IMG/VR virus record: IMGVR_UViG_2657245112_000034
Strand: one strand, 5' to 3'
From: a virus
Lineage: Duplodnaviria > Heunggongvirae > Uroviricota > Caudoviricetes
Length of the DNA: 9,239 bases
In this document: positions 193-8,833 of the stretch, one piece after another
How the letters are laid out: the number at the start of each line of letters is the position of its first letter
How positions within the stretch are numbered: the stretch's first letter is position 1
Program-made: the position numbers and the translations under genes
Notes under the pieces: generated by a model
Told to the model about the DNA's origin: nothing
Database searches by the model: none
The model's input: only the letters and a program-made list of their open reading frames with translations

Positions 193-264
193 TGGAGCAC
201 CTGTGTTGTTCTGAGGTGAGCATATCACCTCTGTTCAGGTGGCCAAATTCAGTAAACCACTTCA
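1..264 (-). mobile_element. Partial IS3-family insertion sequence (IS911-like), left end only; element continues beyond window start
   Basis: Minus-strand translation of 1..192 is a recognisable IS3-family OrfA N-terminus; terminal sequence on minus strand begins TGAAGTGG (forward ccacttca at 257-264, repeated at 265-272), consistent with IS3-family TG...CA ends. Exact end (264 vs 272) uncertain. Confidence 0.7.
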
Positions 265-292
265 CCACTTCAGAGCAGACGAGACAAAAAGA

Positions 293-865
293 ATGGTTGA
301 CGCATCAGCTCAACCCCATATAGTTGTAACACTTGAGCCAAACCCTTGGGCCGCTTTTTACTTTGATATTAACATTGCTAATACAGGGAACGCACCTGCC
401 TATAATGTTGAGGTTGTGTTTGATCCTCCACTAGTAAATGCGGAGCATAGAGAAAAAAGTGAGATTCCGTTTAGTAAGGTAAGCGTGTTAAAAAATGGGC
501 AATCACTTACCAGCAATCTCTGTAAGTATGAACAAATCAAAGATCAAATTTATAATATTAATATAAGCTGGGCAAGCAAACCTAAATCAAACGATAGAGA
601 AACAAATGAATATGTGTATGACATGGCGACATTTGAAGGAATAAGTTATCTAGGAGCGAGAAGCCCATTGACGCAAATTGCAGAACAAATTAAAGGTATA
701 AGAGAGGATTGGAAACCTATTGCACAAGGAGCTAAAAAAGTAAAAGCAGACGTATATACTTCAAGCGATAGAAACGAAGAACGCACGTATCTGCAAGAGC
801 AACACGATTTGGCAATAAAAAGGAGAGATGAGAAAAGAGAAAAAAGATTAGAGTCTGGTGAATAA
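293..865 (+). CDS. Hypothetical protein, 190 aa from ATG 293 (frame open from GTG 239 inside the IS end); possibly 5'-truncated by the IS insertion
   Basis: ORF track 239..865; first ATG at 293 with weak purine-rich upstream (gacgagacaaaaaga). AT-rich codon usage; charged C-terminal tail RRDEKREKRLESGE. No family recognised. Confidence 0.5.
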   Translation: MVDASAQPHIVVTLEPNPWAAFYFDINIANTGNAPAYNVEVVFDPPLVNAEHREKSEIPFSKVSVLKNGQSLTSNLCKYEQIKDQIYNINISWASKPKSNDRETNEYVYDMATFEGISYLGARSPLTQIAEQIKGIREDWKPIAQGAKKVKADVYTSSDRNEERTYLQEQHDLAIKRRDEKREKRLESGE

Positions 866-2643: not shown

Positions 2644-4977
2644 TTATTTTAATATTGGCTCATCACACTTGGGCAGCCAGTCTGCATTACTCTCCTCTTT
2701 CAAAGTGAGGTTAGTTTGCATTCCCTGATTAGTTCGCCGTTTCTCATAATGTAGCCCGTACTCCTTCAGCATGACTGGCAACCCTTTGCCAAACATCGTA
2801 AGACTCAGGGTGTTTTTATAGCCATTAGCCTCCATGTATACGAGGTAGGCATGGTAAAGGTATGTACGTGGCTGGCGTGGGACAATATTGGCGTTCCCCA
2901 TAAACATACCGTTGGTGTCAGGTAATGCCTCAAGGTAGCCACAAAAATCAAATGCTGGATCAGCATCACGCTTGATGGTGAGAGCCTCATCAGAATTCTG
3001 CTGCGACTGAAGCAATGTTCTGGCGCTCATCGGATCGCTGAAACGCTGCATGAGCTGACGAACAATCACAGCCAGTTCTCGTGCAATTTTATCTTTCAAC
3101 TGCGGATCGCGTTCTTCCGGTGCTATCTGCTCAGGAAAATGCAGAATAACTCTCCTGCGGGACACACCACCACTGCGATCAGTGAAGCGCATAGGATTAT
3201 TATTTACGGCCAAGATAACCGCCGGAATATGTGTTGAATAAGCATTCTGATATTTGGGGTCCACAGATACTGCATCGCCACCAGTTATAGCCTTAAGCCC
3301 GGCGCCGTCGCCGCTCCACTTCTCCTGATCAGGCAGGCGAATAAGAGAAAAACCTATCAGAGCCGCACGTTCTCGCGGGGACTCCAGCGTTTCAATGGTC
3401 GCAGAGGTGGCGTTATCCTCTCCAGCAAGCATGGTCGCAATTTCAGCCAGAATACTTTTGCCACTTCCACCAGGGCCAGTCACTTCCAGAAAGAGCTGCC
3501 AGTCATAGCGGTTCGCCAGCACCATAAATAACGCTGCAAGAATAATGTCGCGTTTTGCTGGCTTGTGTCCGGCGGCCCGGTCCAGCCAACGCCAGAATGC
3601 CGGGGCATGAGTTTCAAGCGTTTCCCCCTTTACCGGTGGCGTGAAATCGACTTCACACAGGGTACGCAGCCAGTTCTCTTTACAGTGCGGACTAAAAAGC
3701 CCTGTTCGCGTATCGAGAACGCCATTACGAAAACCAATCAGATGACGTGACGGATTTTGCTGCTGCGGAACAATTAACTTTAATGTTTCCACCAGTGAGG
3801 CAATTTTTCCTGAGGAAAACGGTGCCCCGAGGCGCTGGAAAAGGGCTGCGACATCTCGGGCAAAATCTGACTGAGAAATAACTTTCCACGCTCCAGACTC
3901 GTAGCGGGATAAAAGCTGCCCGTTCGGATCAACCGCCAGTGCATCCCTGTAATGCTCCCGAACCCTCTGAGCTTTTTCGCTGACACTCATCGCTGTGAAT
4001 TCTGCTTCACTCATTGTGTCGAAAGGACTGGCGTTATGTGGCTTCAAAGCCTCAAGAATTGCCTTCCGGGTGGATTCCTCTCCGTATTGGGTAAGCGCAT
4101 CATTCCAGTCACCAAAAACCGGTGGCAGCACAATGTCACACTGACTCGCTTTTGCAGCAGTTTCAGCCCTGTTCTGGCCTGAACCATTCAGATCGCGGTC
4201 CGCTGCAATAATTAACTGATATCCCGGATACTTATTATGGGCAACGCTGCTCAGAGAAAGAAAGTTGACCGACGAAAATGCCACCATGACGGCTTCTCCT
4301 GTCAAATAATGAATGGTAAGCGCCGTGGCGTAACCTTCCGCAATCCAAATCCTTCTTACAGAACTCCCGCCCCCTTCTATCAGATGATAGGCCTCCTTAA
4401 CCTGACCTCCTTTAAGAAAACACTTGCTACCATTGCCACTGATGAGCTGAATATTCACCAGCTCCCCGTCAGCGTTATAGAGTGGGACGATCAAATCACC
4501 GGGGCGGAACATCATACCACCGGCCTTATGAGCTGAAGTCAGCTCATGGCAAATATGCTCCGGGAAACCTTTATGTGTAAGATAAGTGTTTCCGGCAGAT
4601 TCACGCGAGGCTTGCAGCAGTCGCGCGGCAAGTGCTGCCGCTGCATCTTTCCCGCTATCGGTATCGGCGGTTAACGTCCTGACCTCGGAATTAACTACAG
4701 ACAGATCATGTGTCAGTCCATGTATCCTGTCAGCTGCTTCACTGATATCCACATTCAGTGCCCTGGTGACAAGCGCTAAACCATCCCCGGCTCCGCACTG
4801 ATTGCAGAACCATGTTCCGCGTCCTTCCTGATCGTCGAAGCGAAAACGATCTTTACCGCCACAGACCGGGCAAGGCTGATGGCGATTTTTCAATATATTC
4901 ACGCCCAGCGCTGGCAGAATCTGAGCCCAGTGACCGCGGGCAGCCTTCACGGCCTGACTGACTTTCATTCCTGACAT
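2644..4977 (-). CDS. alpha: P4 alpha-type bifunctional DNA primase / replicative helicase with C-terminal origin-binding region
   Basis: 777 aa from ATG at 4977 (RBS GAGGGAGAA upstream; ORF track extends to 5028 but has no RBS there). Zn-ribbon CPVCGGKDRFRF...WFCNQCG near N-terminus, Toprim-like IWIAEGYATA...IIAADRD, Walker A GPGGSGKS. Length equals P4 alpha as I recall it. Confidence 0.9.
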   Translation of the reverse strand: MSGMKVSQAVKAARGHWAQILPALGVNILKNRHQPCPVCGGKDRFRFDDQEGRGTWFCNQCGAGDGLALVTRALNVDISEAADRIHGLTHDLSVVNSEVRTLTADTDSGKDAAAALAARLLQASRESAGNTYLTHKGFPEHICHELTSAHKAGGMMFRPGDLIVPLYNADGELVNIQLISGNGSKCFLKGGQVKEAYHLIEGGGSSVRRIWIAEGYATALTIHYLTGEAVMVAFSSVNFLSLSSVAHNKYPGYQLIIAADRDLNGSGQNRAETAAKASQCDIVLPPVFGDWNDALTQYGEESTRKAILEALKPHNASPFDTMSEAEFTAMSVSEKAQRVREHYRDALAVDPNGQLLSRYESGAWKVISQSDFARDVAALFQRLGAPFSSGKIASLVETLKLIVPQQQNPSRHLIGFRNGVLDTRTGLFSPHCKENWLRTLCEVDFTPPVKGETLETHAPAFWRWLDRAAGHKPAKRDIILAALFMVLANRYDWQLFLEVTGPGGSGKSILAEIATMLAGEDNATSATIETLESPRERAALIGFSLIRLPDQEKWSGDGAGLKAITGGDAVSVDPKYQNAYSTHIPAVILAVNNNPMRFTDRSGGVSRRRVILHFPEQIAPEERDPQLKDKIARELAVIVRQLMQRFSDPMSARTLLQSQQNSDEALTIKRDADPAFDFCGYLEALPDTNGMFMGNANIVPRQPRTYLYHAYLVYMEANGYKNTLSLTMFGKGLPVMLKEYGLHYEKRRTNQGMQTNLTLKEESNADWLPKCDEPILK

Positions 4978-4991
4978 GACGCAGTTCTCCC

Positions 4992-5315
4992 TCAGTGTAA
5001 AACCGGCTTTTTGATGTGACGGACGCATAACTCATCCATTACGGCTATTCCGAGCTGGGAGAGTGCGGGACAGGACATTAGAGGGCCGTATTCCATCAGG
5101 TCTGAAAGCAGGGCGCAGGCGATTTCCATGCCTTTTGTTTGCCCGTGCTGTCGCAGATAAAATCCTTCAAGCTCACGGGCAATAGCGGTTTCAATTTCAT
5201 CCAGAGTGAGCTGCAGATGGCGGTTTTGCTGATAGCAGGCACTCAACCAGGCGCAGGCTACCGCGCGGCGATACAACGCTACCCGAAGTGAAAGGGAAAG
5301 AGTGCGTGATTTCAT
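4992..5315 (-). CDS. Hypothetical early-left-operon protein, 107 aa
   Basis: ATG at 5315 with RBS GGAGGTGGTG; start overlaps the upstream gene's stop in ATGA (5312-5315); ends 14 nt before the alpha start. No family recognised. Confidence 0.6.
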
Positions 5316-5536
5316 TGCACCACCTCCATGTTCATGAGGTCATCCTGGCAACGCTGTACCACGCCATCAAGCTGCTCTGTCATCAGATAAATCAGGGAAA
5401 CCAGTTGTTCACATTGAGCACTGGCAGGTTTTTCGTAGCAATCCTGAAGAACAGCCATTCCAGTGACAAACTCTCCCACGTTACGAAGATGCTTCAGGCG
5501 GAGAATATCGTCATAAGAGATTGCGGCGTGATTCAT
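5312..5536 (-). CDS. Small protein, 74 aa, at the position of P4 epsilon (function unverified)
   Basis: ATG at 5536 (forward cat 5534-5536) with strong RBS GGGAGGTGA; the ORF-track extension to 5575 lacks an RBS. Start overlaps the upstream ORF stop as TAATG. Confidence 0.55.
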
Positions 5537-5727
5537 TAGATCACCTCCCGGACAGGCAGGCGAGCAGCAAGACAAAGCACATACTCATGGACCAGTGAAA
5601 GACGTGCATGATGCTCATTGCTGGCGATGATACGCAGCATACTGATACGTGGTTTACGTTCTGCACGACGAACGGCGGCAAAAACAAATATAAATTGAGG
5701 ATGTGACGGGGCGAGGATCGTAGCCAT
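5536..5727 (-). CDS. Small protein, 63 aa ([63 protein letters not shown]), kil-like position downstream of the immunity RNA region
   Basis: ATG at 5727 (forward cat 5725-5727) preceded by GGAGGT at 7-nt spacing; it is the 3' end of the 234-aa ORF-track frame 5536..6240, the rest of which overlaps RNA elements and vis. Confidence 0.35.
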
Positions 5728-5764
5728 AAGGGCAACCTCCAATAAGTAGCGGTAAATGCCACCA

Positions 5765-5781
5765 CCGGAGTTCCTACGCTC
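5765..5781 (-). promoter_or_regulatory. seqC-like RNA target element (transcript GAGCGUAGGAACUCCGG)
   Basis: Forward gttcctacgc at 5770-5779 is a 10/10 direct repeat of 5977-5986; it sits in the loop of a stem accacc (5761-5766) / ggtggt (5785-5790). Confidence 0.45.
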
Positions 5782-5789
5782 ATGGGTGG

Positions 5790-5875
5790 TGACCCGAACG
5801 GGGGTAGGAATACCGGCCTTATTGGAAACCGGCCAGCCCGAAGGCTGCCCCGCCCGGACCACCATTATCTGAAAG
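5790..5875 (-). ncRNA. Candidate P4 CI-like immunity RNA (boundaries approximate)
   Basis: No credible ORF; holds the single complementary element (transcript CCGGUAUUCCUACCCCCG, forward gtaggaa 5805-5811) and a CAGCC-UUCG-GGCUG tetraloop hairpin (forward 5834-5847). Matches P4 seqA/seqB/seqC logic. Confidence 0.4.
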
Positions 5876-5930
5876 GGGCTAAGGTATAAGCACCGCAGCC
5901 CGAAAAATGGGTGTGCCTGAGCAACGACGT

Positions 5931-5953
5931 AAAAAAAGACGCACGGCGCGTCT
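5931..5953 (-). terminator. Intrinsic terminator / attenuator in the leader between the seqA-like element and the RNA
   Basis: Transcript AGACGC-GCCGU-GCGUCU followed by seven U (forward A-tract 5931-5937), read directly from the minus strand. Confidence 0.45.
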
Positions 5954-5971
5954 GGTGTCGCCAATAAGTAA

Positions 5972-5990
5972 CTCGGGTTCCTACGCCCGG
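5972..5990 (-). promoter_or_regulatory. seqA-like RNA target element (transcript GGGCGUAGGAACCCGAG)
   Basis: Forward gttcctacgc at 5977-5986; complementary to the UUCCUAC-CCC element at 5801-5816 (about 10 of 11 positions can pair). Confidence 0.45.
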
Positions 5991-6015
5991 CAGCCGATTT
6001 TGCGGCAGCGGGAAA

Positions 6016-6045
6016 ACTATACCTGGAAAAGATATCAGGACGCAA
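6016..6045 (-). promoter_or_regulatory. Sigma70-type promoter candidate (P_LE-like) for the immunity / early-left transcript
   Basis: Minus strand TTGCGT (forward 6040-6045), 18-nt spacer, TATAGT (forward 6016-6021), just downstream of the vis stop; predicted start near 6008. Confidence 0.4.
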
Positions 6046-6080: not shown

Positions 6081-6341
6081 TCACGCATGGCCTCCTTGCT
6101 CGCGGGCAGCAATTCGCGCCGCCATCCATGCACTGACCTCCGACTGTACCCAGGCCACATTTTTTCCACCCAGGGATATCTGCTGCGGGAAGGCATCGCG
6201 GCTGATAAGGTCGTAGATGGTTGAACGGGATAGCCCGCAAAGGTGCATCACTTCAGGTAATCGTATGAAGCGCTCCTGCTGAGCCGGAACCGGGAGCACC
6301 GGAGCAGCTGGTGCCGGGGTGGAAACGGAAATACTATTCAT
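6081..6341 (-). CDS. vis: AlpA/Vis-family helix-turn-helix regulator / excisionase-like protein, 86 aa
   Basis: [50 protein letters not shown] is a typical AlpA-family HTH signature; ATG at 6341 with RBS GAGAGGTAG; Pro/Ala-rich N-terminal tail. Confidence 0.85.
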
Positions 6342-7183: not shown

Positions 7184-7255
7184 ATCCTCCTCGGTAGTGC
7201 GCTTGTATGGACCCCGGCACAATTGACACAACAACAAAACACTACCGGAGCAGTC

Positions 7256-8008
7256 ATGACTACTGTTAACCAGATCCCTGATGCAAACATTACACCCTCC
7301 CTCCCACCGAAAATTCGCGAAGCGGTGGATAAAGTTAAGGCAGCAAAAGCTGTCTGGCAGGAAGAACGACGAAAACAAACTGAAGCTGCTGCAATGATTG
7401 AAACTATCCGTAAACGTCAGGAAGATACAAAAACGGAAACGCAGGCGCTTAATGATGAATGGCGAAACCTGTTTCGTGAGAATCAGGGAAATATGACGCC
7501 ACGCATGAAAAAACTGCGGGCAGAAATCGCCCTCGGACGCGAAACACTGGATGAGTTCGAAGATTTGCTGGCAGCTCAGGCGGCAGAAAATGAATTCCTG
7601 CCCTGGAAAACTGCGGATGCTGCAAACCACTACATCAGCGAACATAATCGCCTGATTGAAACTCATGCAGTGTGGCTCTGGAATGAGTTTATGAAGGAAC
7701 ACGGTCAGAAACTTATTCAGATCCTTGGACTGCTGAAAATGACTCTGGGCCGAAGCGCTTCTGCTGTTATCGGTGTAGTTCATACCGTAAACGACCCCGA
7801 AAGTGTGCTGAAGCAATTTATCAGCGAGCAACTCACCACTCCGGCACTGTCCTGTAACGTATCTTCAACCGATGATATTACCCTGCCGGGGATCAGCATT
7901 TATGCGGACGATAAAGCCATCCAGGATGCCAGACAATCCCCCAGCCCTGCAGCGCGTTCACGGATGCTTAAACAGCGTGACATGGTTAAAGGGGGCGAGA
8001 AGAAATGA
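7256..8008 (+). CDS. Sid-like protein by position (alpha-helical, coiled-coil-rich), 250 aa
   Basis: ATG at 7256 with GGAG 5 nt upstream (ORF track starts at TTG 7223); first gene after the late promoter; heptad-like charged helices (WQEERRKQTEAAAMIETIRKRQEDTKTE...). Assignment is by synteny, not recognised sequence. Confidence 0.6.
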   Translation: MTTVNQIPDANITPSLPPKIREAVDKVKAAKAVWQEERRKQTEAAAMIETIRKRQEDTKTETQALNDEWRNLFRENQGNMTPRMKKLRAEIALGRETLDEFEDLLAAQAAENEFLPWKTADAANHYISEHNRLIETHAVWLWNEFMKEHGQKLIQILGLLKMTLGRSASAVIGVVHTVNDPESVLKQFISEQLTTPALSCNVSSTDDITLPGISIYADDKAIQDARQSPSPAARSRMLKQRDMVKGGEKK

Positions 8009-8559
8009 ATGCCGGAACCATTACTCAGGAAGCACTCAACGATTACCGCTCGGCGATAAAAAGCTGGCTGACACTACGTAATACGCAAAGTACCTACCAG
8101 CTTCGTCTGGCGGCTCTGCTGGATACTGAAGAAAAACCGGCAGCATATGCCAGCCAGCTTGAGGATCTTCGTGAGCGTCTTGCAGTCCTCGAATGGCAGA
8201 TTAACTGTGCTGCACGGGATGGTCTTTATGCTCATCAGATTGTGCTGGAGAGTTGTGTTACAAGCGCAACGGAAAACTTCATGAGCGAGCATGGTGATGC
8301 ACTCACTGACGCTCTGGCTCCTTTTCTTTGCGCTCCATACGGGCTTGAGGCGGCAATGAAAATATTACGAACCGCTGTAGCCCGACAAACGGAAATGCGT
8401 ACTCCGGTAATTTCAGCAGCATATAAGAGCATTATCGACGAAACCGGATTAACGGTGGATGCATCAATGCGCGCTGATGCTTCAGCCAGTTTCACCCCGG
8501 CACAACATAAAGTTTTCCTGGCCCGCCTTAACCGACTTAATGAAAAAGGAGTGTGCTGA
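8005..8559 (+). CDS. psu: Psu-like protein (polarity suppression / capsid decoration), 184 aa
   Basis: Start overlaps the sid-like stop in ATGA (8005-8008); segments SWLTLRN, LEWQINCAA, DALAPFL and FTPAQ agree with my recollection of P4 Psu; predicted all-helical. Confidence 0.6.
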   Translation: MNAGTITQEALNDYRSAIKSWLTLRNTQSTYQLRLAALLDTEEKPAAYASQLEDLRERLAVLEWQINCAARDGLYAHQIVLESCVTSATENFMSEHGDALTDALAPFLCAPYGLEAAMKILRTAVARQTEMRTPVISAAYKSIIDETGLTVDASMRADASASFTPAQHKVFLARLNRLNEKGVC

Positions 8560-8560
8560 T

Positions 8561-8833
8561 ATGGCCCTGAAGTGTCCTGAATGTGGCGCGGTCGCTCACG
8601 CCAGAACCAGCGCCTATGAAGCTCCGTCGGTTAAACGCTCATGGTATCAGTGCCAGAATCTGGAATGTTCCTGCACATTTACCGCACTGGAAAGCGTGGA
8701 TACGATAATTATGAAGCCTCGGTGCAATGAACAGGAATCAGACAAAGCAAAAATACCGGAAAAACAACAGCAAACTCTCAATCGCTATGGCTCCGCGTCA
8801 AAGCTGTCAAACCGTCAGCAAATTCCTGTCTGA
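8561..8833 (+). CDS. Ogr/Delta-family zinc-finger late transcription activator, single domain, 90 aa
   Basis: ATG at 8561 with AAGGAG upstream (the ORF-track start at 8459 overlaps psu and is rejected); CPECGAVAHARTS...QCQNLECSCTF matches the P2 Ogr Cys4 signature. Confidence 0.85.
   Translation: MALKCPECGAVAHARTSAYEAPSVKRSWYQCQNLECSCTFTALESVDTIIMKPRCNEQESDKAKIPEKQQQTLNRYGSASKLSNRQQIPV

Follow-up and report, generated by a model that had tools for sequence, protein, structure and literature searches.

A probable antisense-RNA immunity switch in a P4-like satellite prophage of Escherichia coli

Introduction

In P4, CI is a stable small RNA that is processed by RNase P and PNPase from the transcript of the PLE promoter. 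Its contact with the upstream target seqA raises termination at t1, and in this way CI is autoregulated. Briani and colleagues reportedly placed t1 between PLE and cI in 2000 and found it to depend on CI and seqA; t4 and the Rho-dependent timm are also said to exist in P4, from the same work and from that of Forti and colleagues of 1999. In the immI system of P1 and P7, c4 RNA represses the translation of icd and thereby the transcription of ant, and Citron and Schuster are said to have described in 1990 the a'/b' sites and a two-site recognition by c4. For N15, the 'CA RNA' antirepressor control was reportedly described by Ravin and colleagues in 1999.

In P4-like prophages, the IsrK-like RNA corresponds to seqA and the C4-like RNA to CI (PMC3632133, PMC4825925), and the Rfam models of C4 and isrK detect relatives of CI and seqA, respectively (PMC10111431). 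P4 CI and C4 are both among the listed substrates of RNase P (PMC5499578). The eta ORF of P4 is translationally coupled to the alpA homologue and coexists with the RNAs (PMC10111431), and its translation allows the transcripts of the upstream late promoter to escape control (PMC10111431; PMC4825925). P4-like satellites are carried by more than 30% of Enterobacterales genomes (PMC8628076); the RNAs were not analysed in that large survey, and the word "RNA" is absent from its text.

Here we describe the immunity region of a 9,239-nt stretch of viral DNA (IMG/VR record IMGVR_UViG_2657245112_000034), called the window below, to which all positions refer unless P4 is named. The original prediction, made from the letters of the window, had proposed for positions 5765-6045 a regulatory logic like that of P4 CI immunity.

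Results

Identity and gene context of the element

A chromosomal segment with 100% identity to the window is carried by E. coli O26:H11 strain 11368 and by further strains, most of them O26. In the O26:H11 genome, RefSeq annotates in order genes for an HTH regulator, a protein named "Icd-like", a hypothetical protein of small size, a DUF5375 protein and a primase-helicase; the opposite strand encodes a hypothetical protein, Psu and an Ogr/Delta protein. In the window, Pfam matches were obtained for AlpA, Phage_ASH, DUF5375, primase-helicase domains, Psu and Ogr_Delta. This is the left operon of the P4 type (alpA/vis, eta/kil, DUF5375 and alpha); sid, psu and delta lie on the opposite strand. 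The alpha protein shows 73% amino acid identity to P4 alpha, and a 751-bp query around the locus matched P4 over 81% of its length with 72% identity, in a stretch of P4 that includes the old "cI" ORF and ORF88. We identify the window as a P4-like satellite prophage from E. coli that carries an antisense-RNA immunity switch, and the expression of alpha, a replication gene, is expected to be under the control of this switch. The prophage is flanked by IS elements and the integrase is distant; for this reason, the satellite may be defective even with an intact switch.

A region of 351 bp containing the immunity elements found matches in 1,181 of the 5,426 complete E. coli genomes, and 160 records matched it at 99% identity or more. 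In all 12 records sampled across the ranking, the RefSeq annotation over the region consists of a protein CDS only ("Icd-like protein"), so that the two RNA genes located there go unannotated.

For the comparison within the family, 80 loci encoding relatives of alpha were fetched from other genomes and the immunity region was located with nhmmer. The resulting alignment contains 53 full-length immunity regions, the window and P4, that is 55 sequences. The features of the window are collected in Table 1.

Table 1. Coordinates of the immunity elements and of the associated genes in the window
Feature	Position	Strand	Details
alpA/vis-like gene (P4 ORF88 homologue), upstream of immunity region	6081..6341	-	Pfam Phage_AlpA 4.2e-20
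PLE-type constitutive promoter	6016..6045	-	-35 TTGCGT 6045-6040, 18-nt spacer, -10 TATAGT 6021-6016
IsrK-like leader RNA (P4 seqA RNA)	5932..6009	-	Rfam isrK RF01394, 72.1 bits, cutoff 50
Leader parts	within 5932..6009	-	hairpin 1 6009-5990, seqA hairpin 5989-5974, A2 site, t1
seqA, upstream CI target	5977..5989	-	core GUAGGAA 5984-5978; CGGG flank 5989-5986
A2, second upstream target	5961..5968	-	CUUAUUGG, between seqA hairpin and t1
t1-type intrinsic terminator	5931..5953	-	AGACGCG-CCG-TGCGTCT stem-loop 5953-5937 and U7 5937-5931, terminator scan
CI-like immunity RNA, C4 family	5782..5869	-	Rfam RF01695, 83.4 bits, cutoff 45
B2, second recognition determinant	5818..5825	-	CCAAUAAG, in CI hairpin-2 loop
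seqB, single-stranded CI linker	5799..5816	-	core UUCCUAC 5810-5804; UUCCUAC-CCC 5810-5801
seqC, downstream CI target	5765..5779	-	core GUAGGAA 5777-5771 and CCGG 5768-5765
Alternative hairpin presenting seqC in loop	5760..5791	-	CACCACC 5791-5785 : GGUGGUG 5766-5760
Hairpin between seqC and Shine-Dalgarno	5746..5765	-	GUGGUGG-CAUUUA-CCGCUAC, -8.2 kcal/mol
C2, second downstream target	5736..5746	-	CUUAUUGGA 5746-5738; overlaps kil Shine-Dalgarno GGAGG 5740-5736
eta-like long ORF, 182 aa	5536..6084	-	Pfam Phage_ASH 4.7e-33; RefSeq 'Icd-like'
kil-like ORF, 63 aa, first translated gene downstream of PLE	5536..5727	-	ATG 5727; homologous to P4 Kil (65 aa)
alpha primase-helicase	2644..4977	-	Zn_Ribbon_Prim, Toprim, D5_N, Pox_D5

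Promoter, leader RNA and t1 terminator

The minus-strand promoter TTGCGT-18-TATAGT, as originally predicted, is present at 6045-6016 and aligns column for column, with identical spacing, with TTGCCT-N18-TATAGT of P4, whose hexamers we take to be those of PLE. The -35 TTGC and the -10 TA(T/C)AGT are conserved across the 55 loci. A generic sigma-70 scan did not report a promoter at 6045-6016, as its -35 hexamer agrees with TTGACA in no more than 3 of the 6 positions; the assignment is therefore based on the homology with P4 and on the conservation in the family. Transcription would start near G6009.

The leader matches the isrK model over its full length (model positions 1-77). In the family alignment, pairing reaches 99.2% in hairpin 1, where 5 pairs co-vary, and 100% in the seqA hairpin; the stem of the latter is CGGG/CCCG and its loop carries the repeat GCGTAGGAAC, the first copy of which had been recognised in the prediction as seqA-like. 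The predicted intrinsic terminator, with a 6-bp stem followed by U7, was found again by the terminator scan (stem of 6-7 bp at 5953-5937, T run at 5937-5931); its stem is 96.6% paired in the family, and hairpin and T-run align with the same hairpin and T-run of P4. The region thus begins with a constitutive promoter followed by a leader with seqA and an intrinsic terminator upstream of cI. The position of the terminator right after seqA matches that of P4 t1, as reported by Briani and colleagues in 2000.

The leader did not reach the cutoff of the Rfam family c4-a1b1 (RF03163), scoring 43.8 bits (E 5.7e-10) as compared to 46.7 bits; the match at 6022-5970 covers the full model, in a stretch that is also covered by isrK, and three relatives pass the cutoff with 49.9-50.8 bits. 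A match to sR53 (E 0.99) was discarded as noise.

In equilibrium folding of the window leader, the predicted probability of t1 rose from 0.69 to 1.0 when seqA and A2 were blocked. Among 54 leaders, the prediction for most was that t1 forms even when CI is absent (median probability 0.96; 0.98 in P4), and the block of seqA and A2 gave a gain of at least 0.1 in only 11 loci, as compared to 1 for the control block. A thermodynamic anti-terminator model of t1 is for this reason not claimed; equilibrium folding neither supports nor refutes a CI dependence of t1, and does not account for a requirement for CI at this site.

CI RNA and the seqA/seqB/seqC triplet

The CI-like RNA matches RF01695 over the full length of the model (positions 1-87). 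Its fold consists of a 17-bp basal stem, a UUCG-capped hairpin 1 (CAGCC-UUCG-GGCUG, 5847-5834) and a hairpin 2 with a 12-nt loop. The minimum free energy structure is the same fold (-47.2 kcal/mol, z -3.25), and in the family the basal stem is 99.7% paired and the UUCG hairpin 100% paired, with covariation. The 3' side of CI contains tRNA-like CCA-type motifs (CACCACCCA, 5791-5783); these might hint at a processing of CI from the promoter transcript, and are to be regarded as suggestive only. C4 and isrK, the families named in the original prediction, both match full-length above their gathering scores, and P4 gives the same two matches in the same order (C4 at 8507-8420 and isrK at 8692-8615 of P4).

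The elements of the pairing scheme are all where they had been predicted: the first repeat at 5986-5977 (GCGUAGGAAC), the complementary UUCCUAC-CCC at 5810-5801, the UUCG-capped hairpin and the second GCGTAGGAAC at 5779-5770, within a hairpin loop. The order of the elements, about which the prediction had expressed doubt, is the same as in P4 in the pairwise alignment. The proposal that one element pairs with both repeats is borne out by the computed duplexes. With seqA, seqB forms a 7-bp core, one C.C mismatch and a 4-bp CGGG/CCCG flank, one base pair longer than the 3 originally proposed (RNAduplex, -22.2 kcal/mol); with seqC, it forms a 7-bp core, two mismatches and then CCGG (RNAduplex, -20.0 kcal/mol). 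Two different flanks of seqB are involved, the 3' CCCG in pairing with seqA and the 5' CCGG in pairing with seqC. The 10-mer GCGTAGGAAC, at up to 1 mismatch, occurs at two sites in the window with respect to 0.28 expected from shuffles, and two or more matches were reached in 7 of 200 shuffles. This statistic alone is weak evidence, and the significance of the repeats rests for this reason on the three-way covariation across the family.

The helix of the hairpin that presents seqC in its loop (CACCACC/GGUGGUG) is 99.0% paired across the 55 relatives, with 3 co-varying pairs, and has a free energy of -13.0 kcal/mol on its own. As CACCACC 5791-5785 doubles as the 3' strand in the basal stem of CI, the seqC hairpin competes with this stem. 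Such a competition may point to a processing/termination switch.

A second pairing determinant

The loop of CI hairpin 2 (B2) is complementary both to A2 in the leader and to C2 at the kil Shine-Dalgarno. In the 55-locus alignment, the A2:B2 helix is 99.8% paired with 6 co-varying pairs, and the B2:C2 helix is 94.7% paired with 7 co-varying pairs; the covariation of this triplet is as tight as that of the seqA/seqB/seqC triplet. At the places of CCAAUAAG, CUUAUUGG and CUUAUUGGA of the window, P4 has CCUGUGAA (hairpin-2 loop), UUCACAGG and UUCACAGGA. This second determinant, the C2 site (just outside 5765-6045) and the eta/kil frame had not been part of the original prediction. The overlap of C2 with the Shine-Dalgarno may be the structural basis for a translational block of kil. 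By analogy, a two-site recognition would be expected for the C4 family, for which Rfam curates a family "a1, b1 targets of C4".

Covariation across the family

The seqA core is identical to the seqC core and is the reverse complement of the seqB core at 14 of 14 positions in all 55 loci; the 7-nt core falls into seven allelic classes. The window allele GUAGGAA/UUCCUAC is found in 14 of the 55 loci and the P4 allele GUGAGAA/UUCUCAC in 12; what separates the two is a dinucleotide swap, with compensation at each of the three sites. When both determinants are considered, 98.7% of the alignment cells are paired for seqA:seqB plus A2:B2 (39-51% in slid controls), and 97.2% for seqB:seqC plus B2:C2 (36-49% in slid controls), with 13 pairs changed on both sides in each case. 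Cognate duplexes have energies of -20 to -24 kcal/mol, as compared to -15.5 to -17.3 kcal/mol for the crosses between window and P4. Both Rfam families, C4 and isrK, match full-length above cutoff in 8 relatives that cover all seven alleles.

For the B2 triplet, 14 alleles were counted; their assortment is independent of that of the 7 seqB alleles, and 26 combinations occur in the 55 loci. Some satellites residing in the same genome differ at one determinant only. The immunity combinations differ in 9 of 9 pairs of satellites of the same genome; as we estimate that chance alone would produce this in about 70% of such sets, the count carries no information on an avoidance of identical combinations by co-resident satellites.

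The kil and eta frames

The frame of the eta-like ORF crosses the promoter, the leader and the CI RNA, and remains uninterrupted over the RNA region in 50 of the 53 relatives; its GTG start at 6084 overlaps the stop codon of alpA/vis (GTGA). The nested arrangement of eta and kil and the coupling of eta to the alpA homologue are as described for P4 (PMC10111431). The hairpin at 5765-5746 may be the equivalent of the atypical terminator t4 of P4. It is only 76.6% paired in the alignment and, judged by eye, lies in a different register in several relatives; because of this low pairing we keep the t4 assignment as a candidate. In the free downstream mRNA, the Shine-Dalgarno and the AUG are predicted to be sequestered in a long hairpin (-22.8 kcal/mol).

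Discussion

The P4 CI immunity logic, as originally proposed, is supported by the Rfam matches, the alignment with P4, the context of the left operon and the covariation. We consider it highly probable (roughly 0.9) that a mechanism of the P4 type operates at this locus, a confidence that derives entirely from sequence, structure, covariation and homology. By homology, the promoter at 6045-6016 would transcribe an untranslated leader, and many transcripts would end at t1 (5953-5931), yielding the IsrK-like RNA of about 77 nt, while those that read through would be processed to a stable CI RNA, some 80 nt long and lying within 5869-5782. CI would then act in trans on nascent transcripts of the same promoter, from both the resident and the superinfecting element. 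Upstream, seqB would contact seqA, and B2 would contact A2; downstream, seqB would contact seqC, and B2 would contact C2. The contact with C2 would mask the kil Shine-Dalgarno, so that kil is not translated, and termination ahead of the alpha primase-helicase would keep replication off. Transcripts from an upstream late promoter would escape this control, with eta being translated through the region in coupling with alpA/vis.

The same RNAs might be part of an immI module of the P1/P7 type, in which c4 would control icd and thereby ant, and not replication. The regulator indeed belongs to the same Rfam family, C4, the overlapping CDS is named 'Icd-like' in RefSeq, the leader comes near the c4-a1b1 cutoff (43.8 vs. 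46.7 bits), and the recognition at two sites resembles the a'/b' sites reported for c4. However, no ant gene was found downstream of the icd-like ORF; the operon continues instead with a 74-aa ORF without Pfam match, DUF5375 and alpha, as in P4. Moreover, the DNA homology spans the entire P4 immunity region and alpA/vis, and sid, psu and delta are adjacent. The immI reading is effectively refuted by this gene content, and we regard it as very improbable. It might also be considered that the leader works as IsrK of Gifsy-1, where the leader RNA would act in trans to open a translationally inactive read-through mRNA and a toxic or anti-terminator gene would be expressed. Such a role would be in agreement with the full-length isrK match, with the predicted sequestration of the Shine-Dalgarno and AUG in the free downstream mRNA (-22.8 kcal/mol) and with the structural homology to Salmonella, where the CI-like RNA STnc1160 lies downstream of IsrK (PMC4825925); the leader carries seqA and A2, and hence could also titrate CI. 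Nevertheless, neither gene annotation nor Pfam revealed genes of the orf45-anrP-antQ type in the window, although the isrK model matches, and a cassette of this type is missing downstream. In addition, the covariation ties the leader sites to CI, and seqA equals seqC and is not complementary to it, which makes an activation by IsrK in trans highly unlikely here.

Another explanation would be that the region is simply protein-coding (Ash/Icd-like) and that its repeats are coding repeats or arose by chance. The 182-aa ORF covers the whole locus with a Phage_ASH match (4.7e-33), it is all that RefSeq annotates there, and 50 of the 53 relatives have kept its frame. Yet nothing in coding calls for a third element complementary in reverse to two direct repeats, nor for a strict three-way compensation in two separate triplets, and both the covariance model matches and the covariation in the helices support an RNA structure. 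Coding alone is already contradicted by this covariation and has an extremely low probability; given that the eta ORF and the RNAs coexist in P4 (PMC10111431), coding is an extra layer and not an alternative to P4-type immunity by CI.

From the raw sequence alone, the original prediction had reconstructed an antisense-RNA termination switch that is real, and had named its families correctly; the sequence also gives the immunity allele directly. The family alignment leads us to a further, tentative proposal, to which we give clearly less than even odds, namely that P4-like satellites use a bipartite modular RNA immunity code, in which CI carries two independent determinants that reassort freely, together with a competing seqC hairpin. 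The covariation behind this code is solid. What is possibly new is only the family-wide picture of two reassorting determinants and the seqC hairpin; if it is undescribed for the P4 family, it would provide a heteroimmunity map readable from sequence for satellites present in roughly a third of Enterobacterales. Reassorting determinants could predict which satellites coexist or exclude each other.

Among the described systems, c4 of P1/P7 (immI; RF01695, RF03163) has the same RNA family and fold, is processed from the transcript that it regulates, and has targets both upstream and downstream, which are recognised at two sites; the downstream target lies at the ribosome-binding site of a small gene for a toxic protein or division inhibitor. 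Its output is the antirepressor Ant, whereas the replication operon (alpha) takes this place in the window and in P4. In Gifsy-1 of Salmonella (IsrK/STnc1160), a structurally homologous leader sRNA ends at an intrinsic terminator and a processed C4-like RNA follows downstream (PMC4825925, PMC3632133); there, IsrK activates in trans the translation of orf45-anrP, leading to AntQ, and these genes are absent from the window. The linear plasmid-prophages of the N15/phiKO2 type and the Stx-converting lambdoid phages share with the window the RNA module alone, and their operons and outputs are different: phiKO2 shows 80% DNA similarity over about 27% of the query, in the region of CI and its target, and the Stx phages show 69% over CI and target region.

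The closest system is that of P4, which aligns base for base over the PLE-seqA-t1-cI-seqC-kil region, with the same order of elements and spacing logic; promoter hexamers, hairpin 1, seqA hairpin, t1, CI, seqC, Shine-Dalgarno and kil start all align with their P4 counterparts. All the features that define P4 immunity and could be tested are present at the locus, and this system is already known. With respect to P4, the window has a t1-CI spacer that is shorter by 45 nt, due to a deletion that is in frame, a single 74-aa ORF stands in place of epsilon and ORF151, and psu and delta are in swapped order. The specificity allele also differs, being GUAGGAA/UUCCUAC with the loop CCAAUAAG here and GUGAGAA/UUCUCAC with CCUGUGAA in P4, and since both the seqB core and the hairpin-2 loop are different, the satellite in the window and P4 are predicted to be heteroimmune.

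A second three-way complementary set in the immunity locus

We observed a second three-way complementary set in the immunity locus, consisting of a site in the leader, the loop of CI hairpin 2 and a site near kil (see the table below). The triplet formed by these three elements covaries over the 55 loci of alignment A3 (53 relatives, the window and P4). Its 14 alleles assort independently of the 7 alleles of seqB, giving 26 combinations in the same loci.

The P4-like elements residing in the same genome (L006/L009, L012/L013/L017, L037/L038, L019/L040, L004/L054, L007/L043 and L008/L050) were compared in this respect. Every one of the 9 same-genome pairs carries different immunity combinations, a result that is statistically uninformative, being expected by chance at about 70%. 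Some co-resident elements are distinct at one determinant only: the sole immunity difference between L037 and L038 is a GA/AG swap, and the hairpin-2 loop alone differs between L012 and L013 and between L019 and L040.

Positions of the features in the window
Feature	Position	Strand	Remarks
Leader site, CUUAUUGG	5968-5961	minus	second complementary set
CI hairpin-2 loop, CCAAUAAG	5825-5818	minus	second complementary set
kil site, CUUAUUGGA	5746-5738	minus	third member of the set; overlaps kil Shine-Dalgarno
GGCGAC	5961-5956		before t1; A3 columns 89-94
CGCGCC	5949-5944		in t1; A3 columns 101-106
eta-like long ORF	6084-5536	minus	Pfam Phage_ASH; RefSeq 'Icd-like'; spans promoter, leader, terminator and CI RNA
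74-aa ORF	5312-5536	minus	no Pfam match
AbiJ_NTD4-domain protein	914-1738	minus	274 aa; downstream of alpha
ORF interrupted by IS600 elsewhere	239-865		208 aa; no Pfam match
IS600 site	~390-460		6462-7618 in L001
sid-like, psu, delta	7223-8833	plus	late genes

Alternative pairings and coding constraint

In the CI basal stem, the 3' strand (5791-5785) is also complementary to the segment directly after seqC on the minus strand (5766-5760), and this second helix is 99% paired, with three co-varying pairs. At the positions that vary in the family, the downstream strand compensates with full Watson-Crick pairs, while the same changes are absorbed in the CI 5' strand via G.U wobble. This pattern suggests that the RNA can switch its structure, taking either the CI fold or the form of a hairpin presenting seqC.

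Around t1, both GGCGAC and CGCGCC, the latter including the loop bases CC, are almost invariant in the 55 loci; such conservation of a loop is unusual in a terminator. These bases show no covariation; GGCG might base-pair with CGCC and thereby compete weakly with t1. An alternative account of this invariance is coding constraint on the eta-like ORF. The frame of this ORF is kept open in 50 of the 53 relatives, the indels that separate the window from P4 within it (45 nt) are in frame, and the ORF starts with a GTG that overlaps the stop codon of alpA/vis. The DNA of the eta region is under simultaneous RNA and protein constraint. In RefSeq (locus L001, accession NC_013361.1, plus a sample of twelve E. 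coli records), the region is labelled as a protein CDS only, either 'host cell division inhibitor Icd-like protein' or 'ash family protein', and no ncRNA feature for C4-like or IsrK-like RNAs was found in these records.

A possible cargo gene and an IS600 insertion

The gene for the AbiJ_NTD4 protein is possibly cargo of the satellite, with a role in abortive infection or defence. All the 100%-identical E. coli genomes listed (mostly O26) contain within the segment an additional IS600, about 1.27 kb long, which cuts short an ORF present at full length in the window; the window is therefore the version of the segment without IS600.

Comparison with other phages and P4

Among the phage records matched by the query around the immunity locus (H4-H25), the CI and target module (query ~328-653) matches Klebsiella phiKO2-type phages, with identity up to 80%, as well as many phages of the Stx-converting type, at 69%. 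Unrelated phage backbones share the RNA module.

The window delta is one short Ogr/Delta zinc-finger protein, and the sid-like protein gives a weak Pfam Psu match (30.6 bits). In the window the late genes run in the order sid-like, psu, delta, whereas P4 has sid, delta, psu; among P4-like elements, a frequency of about 20% has been reported for this psu/delta swap (PMC8628076). The position of epsilon and ORF151 in P4 is occupied in the window by the single 74-aa ORF.
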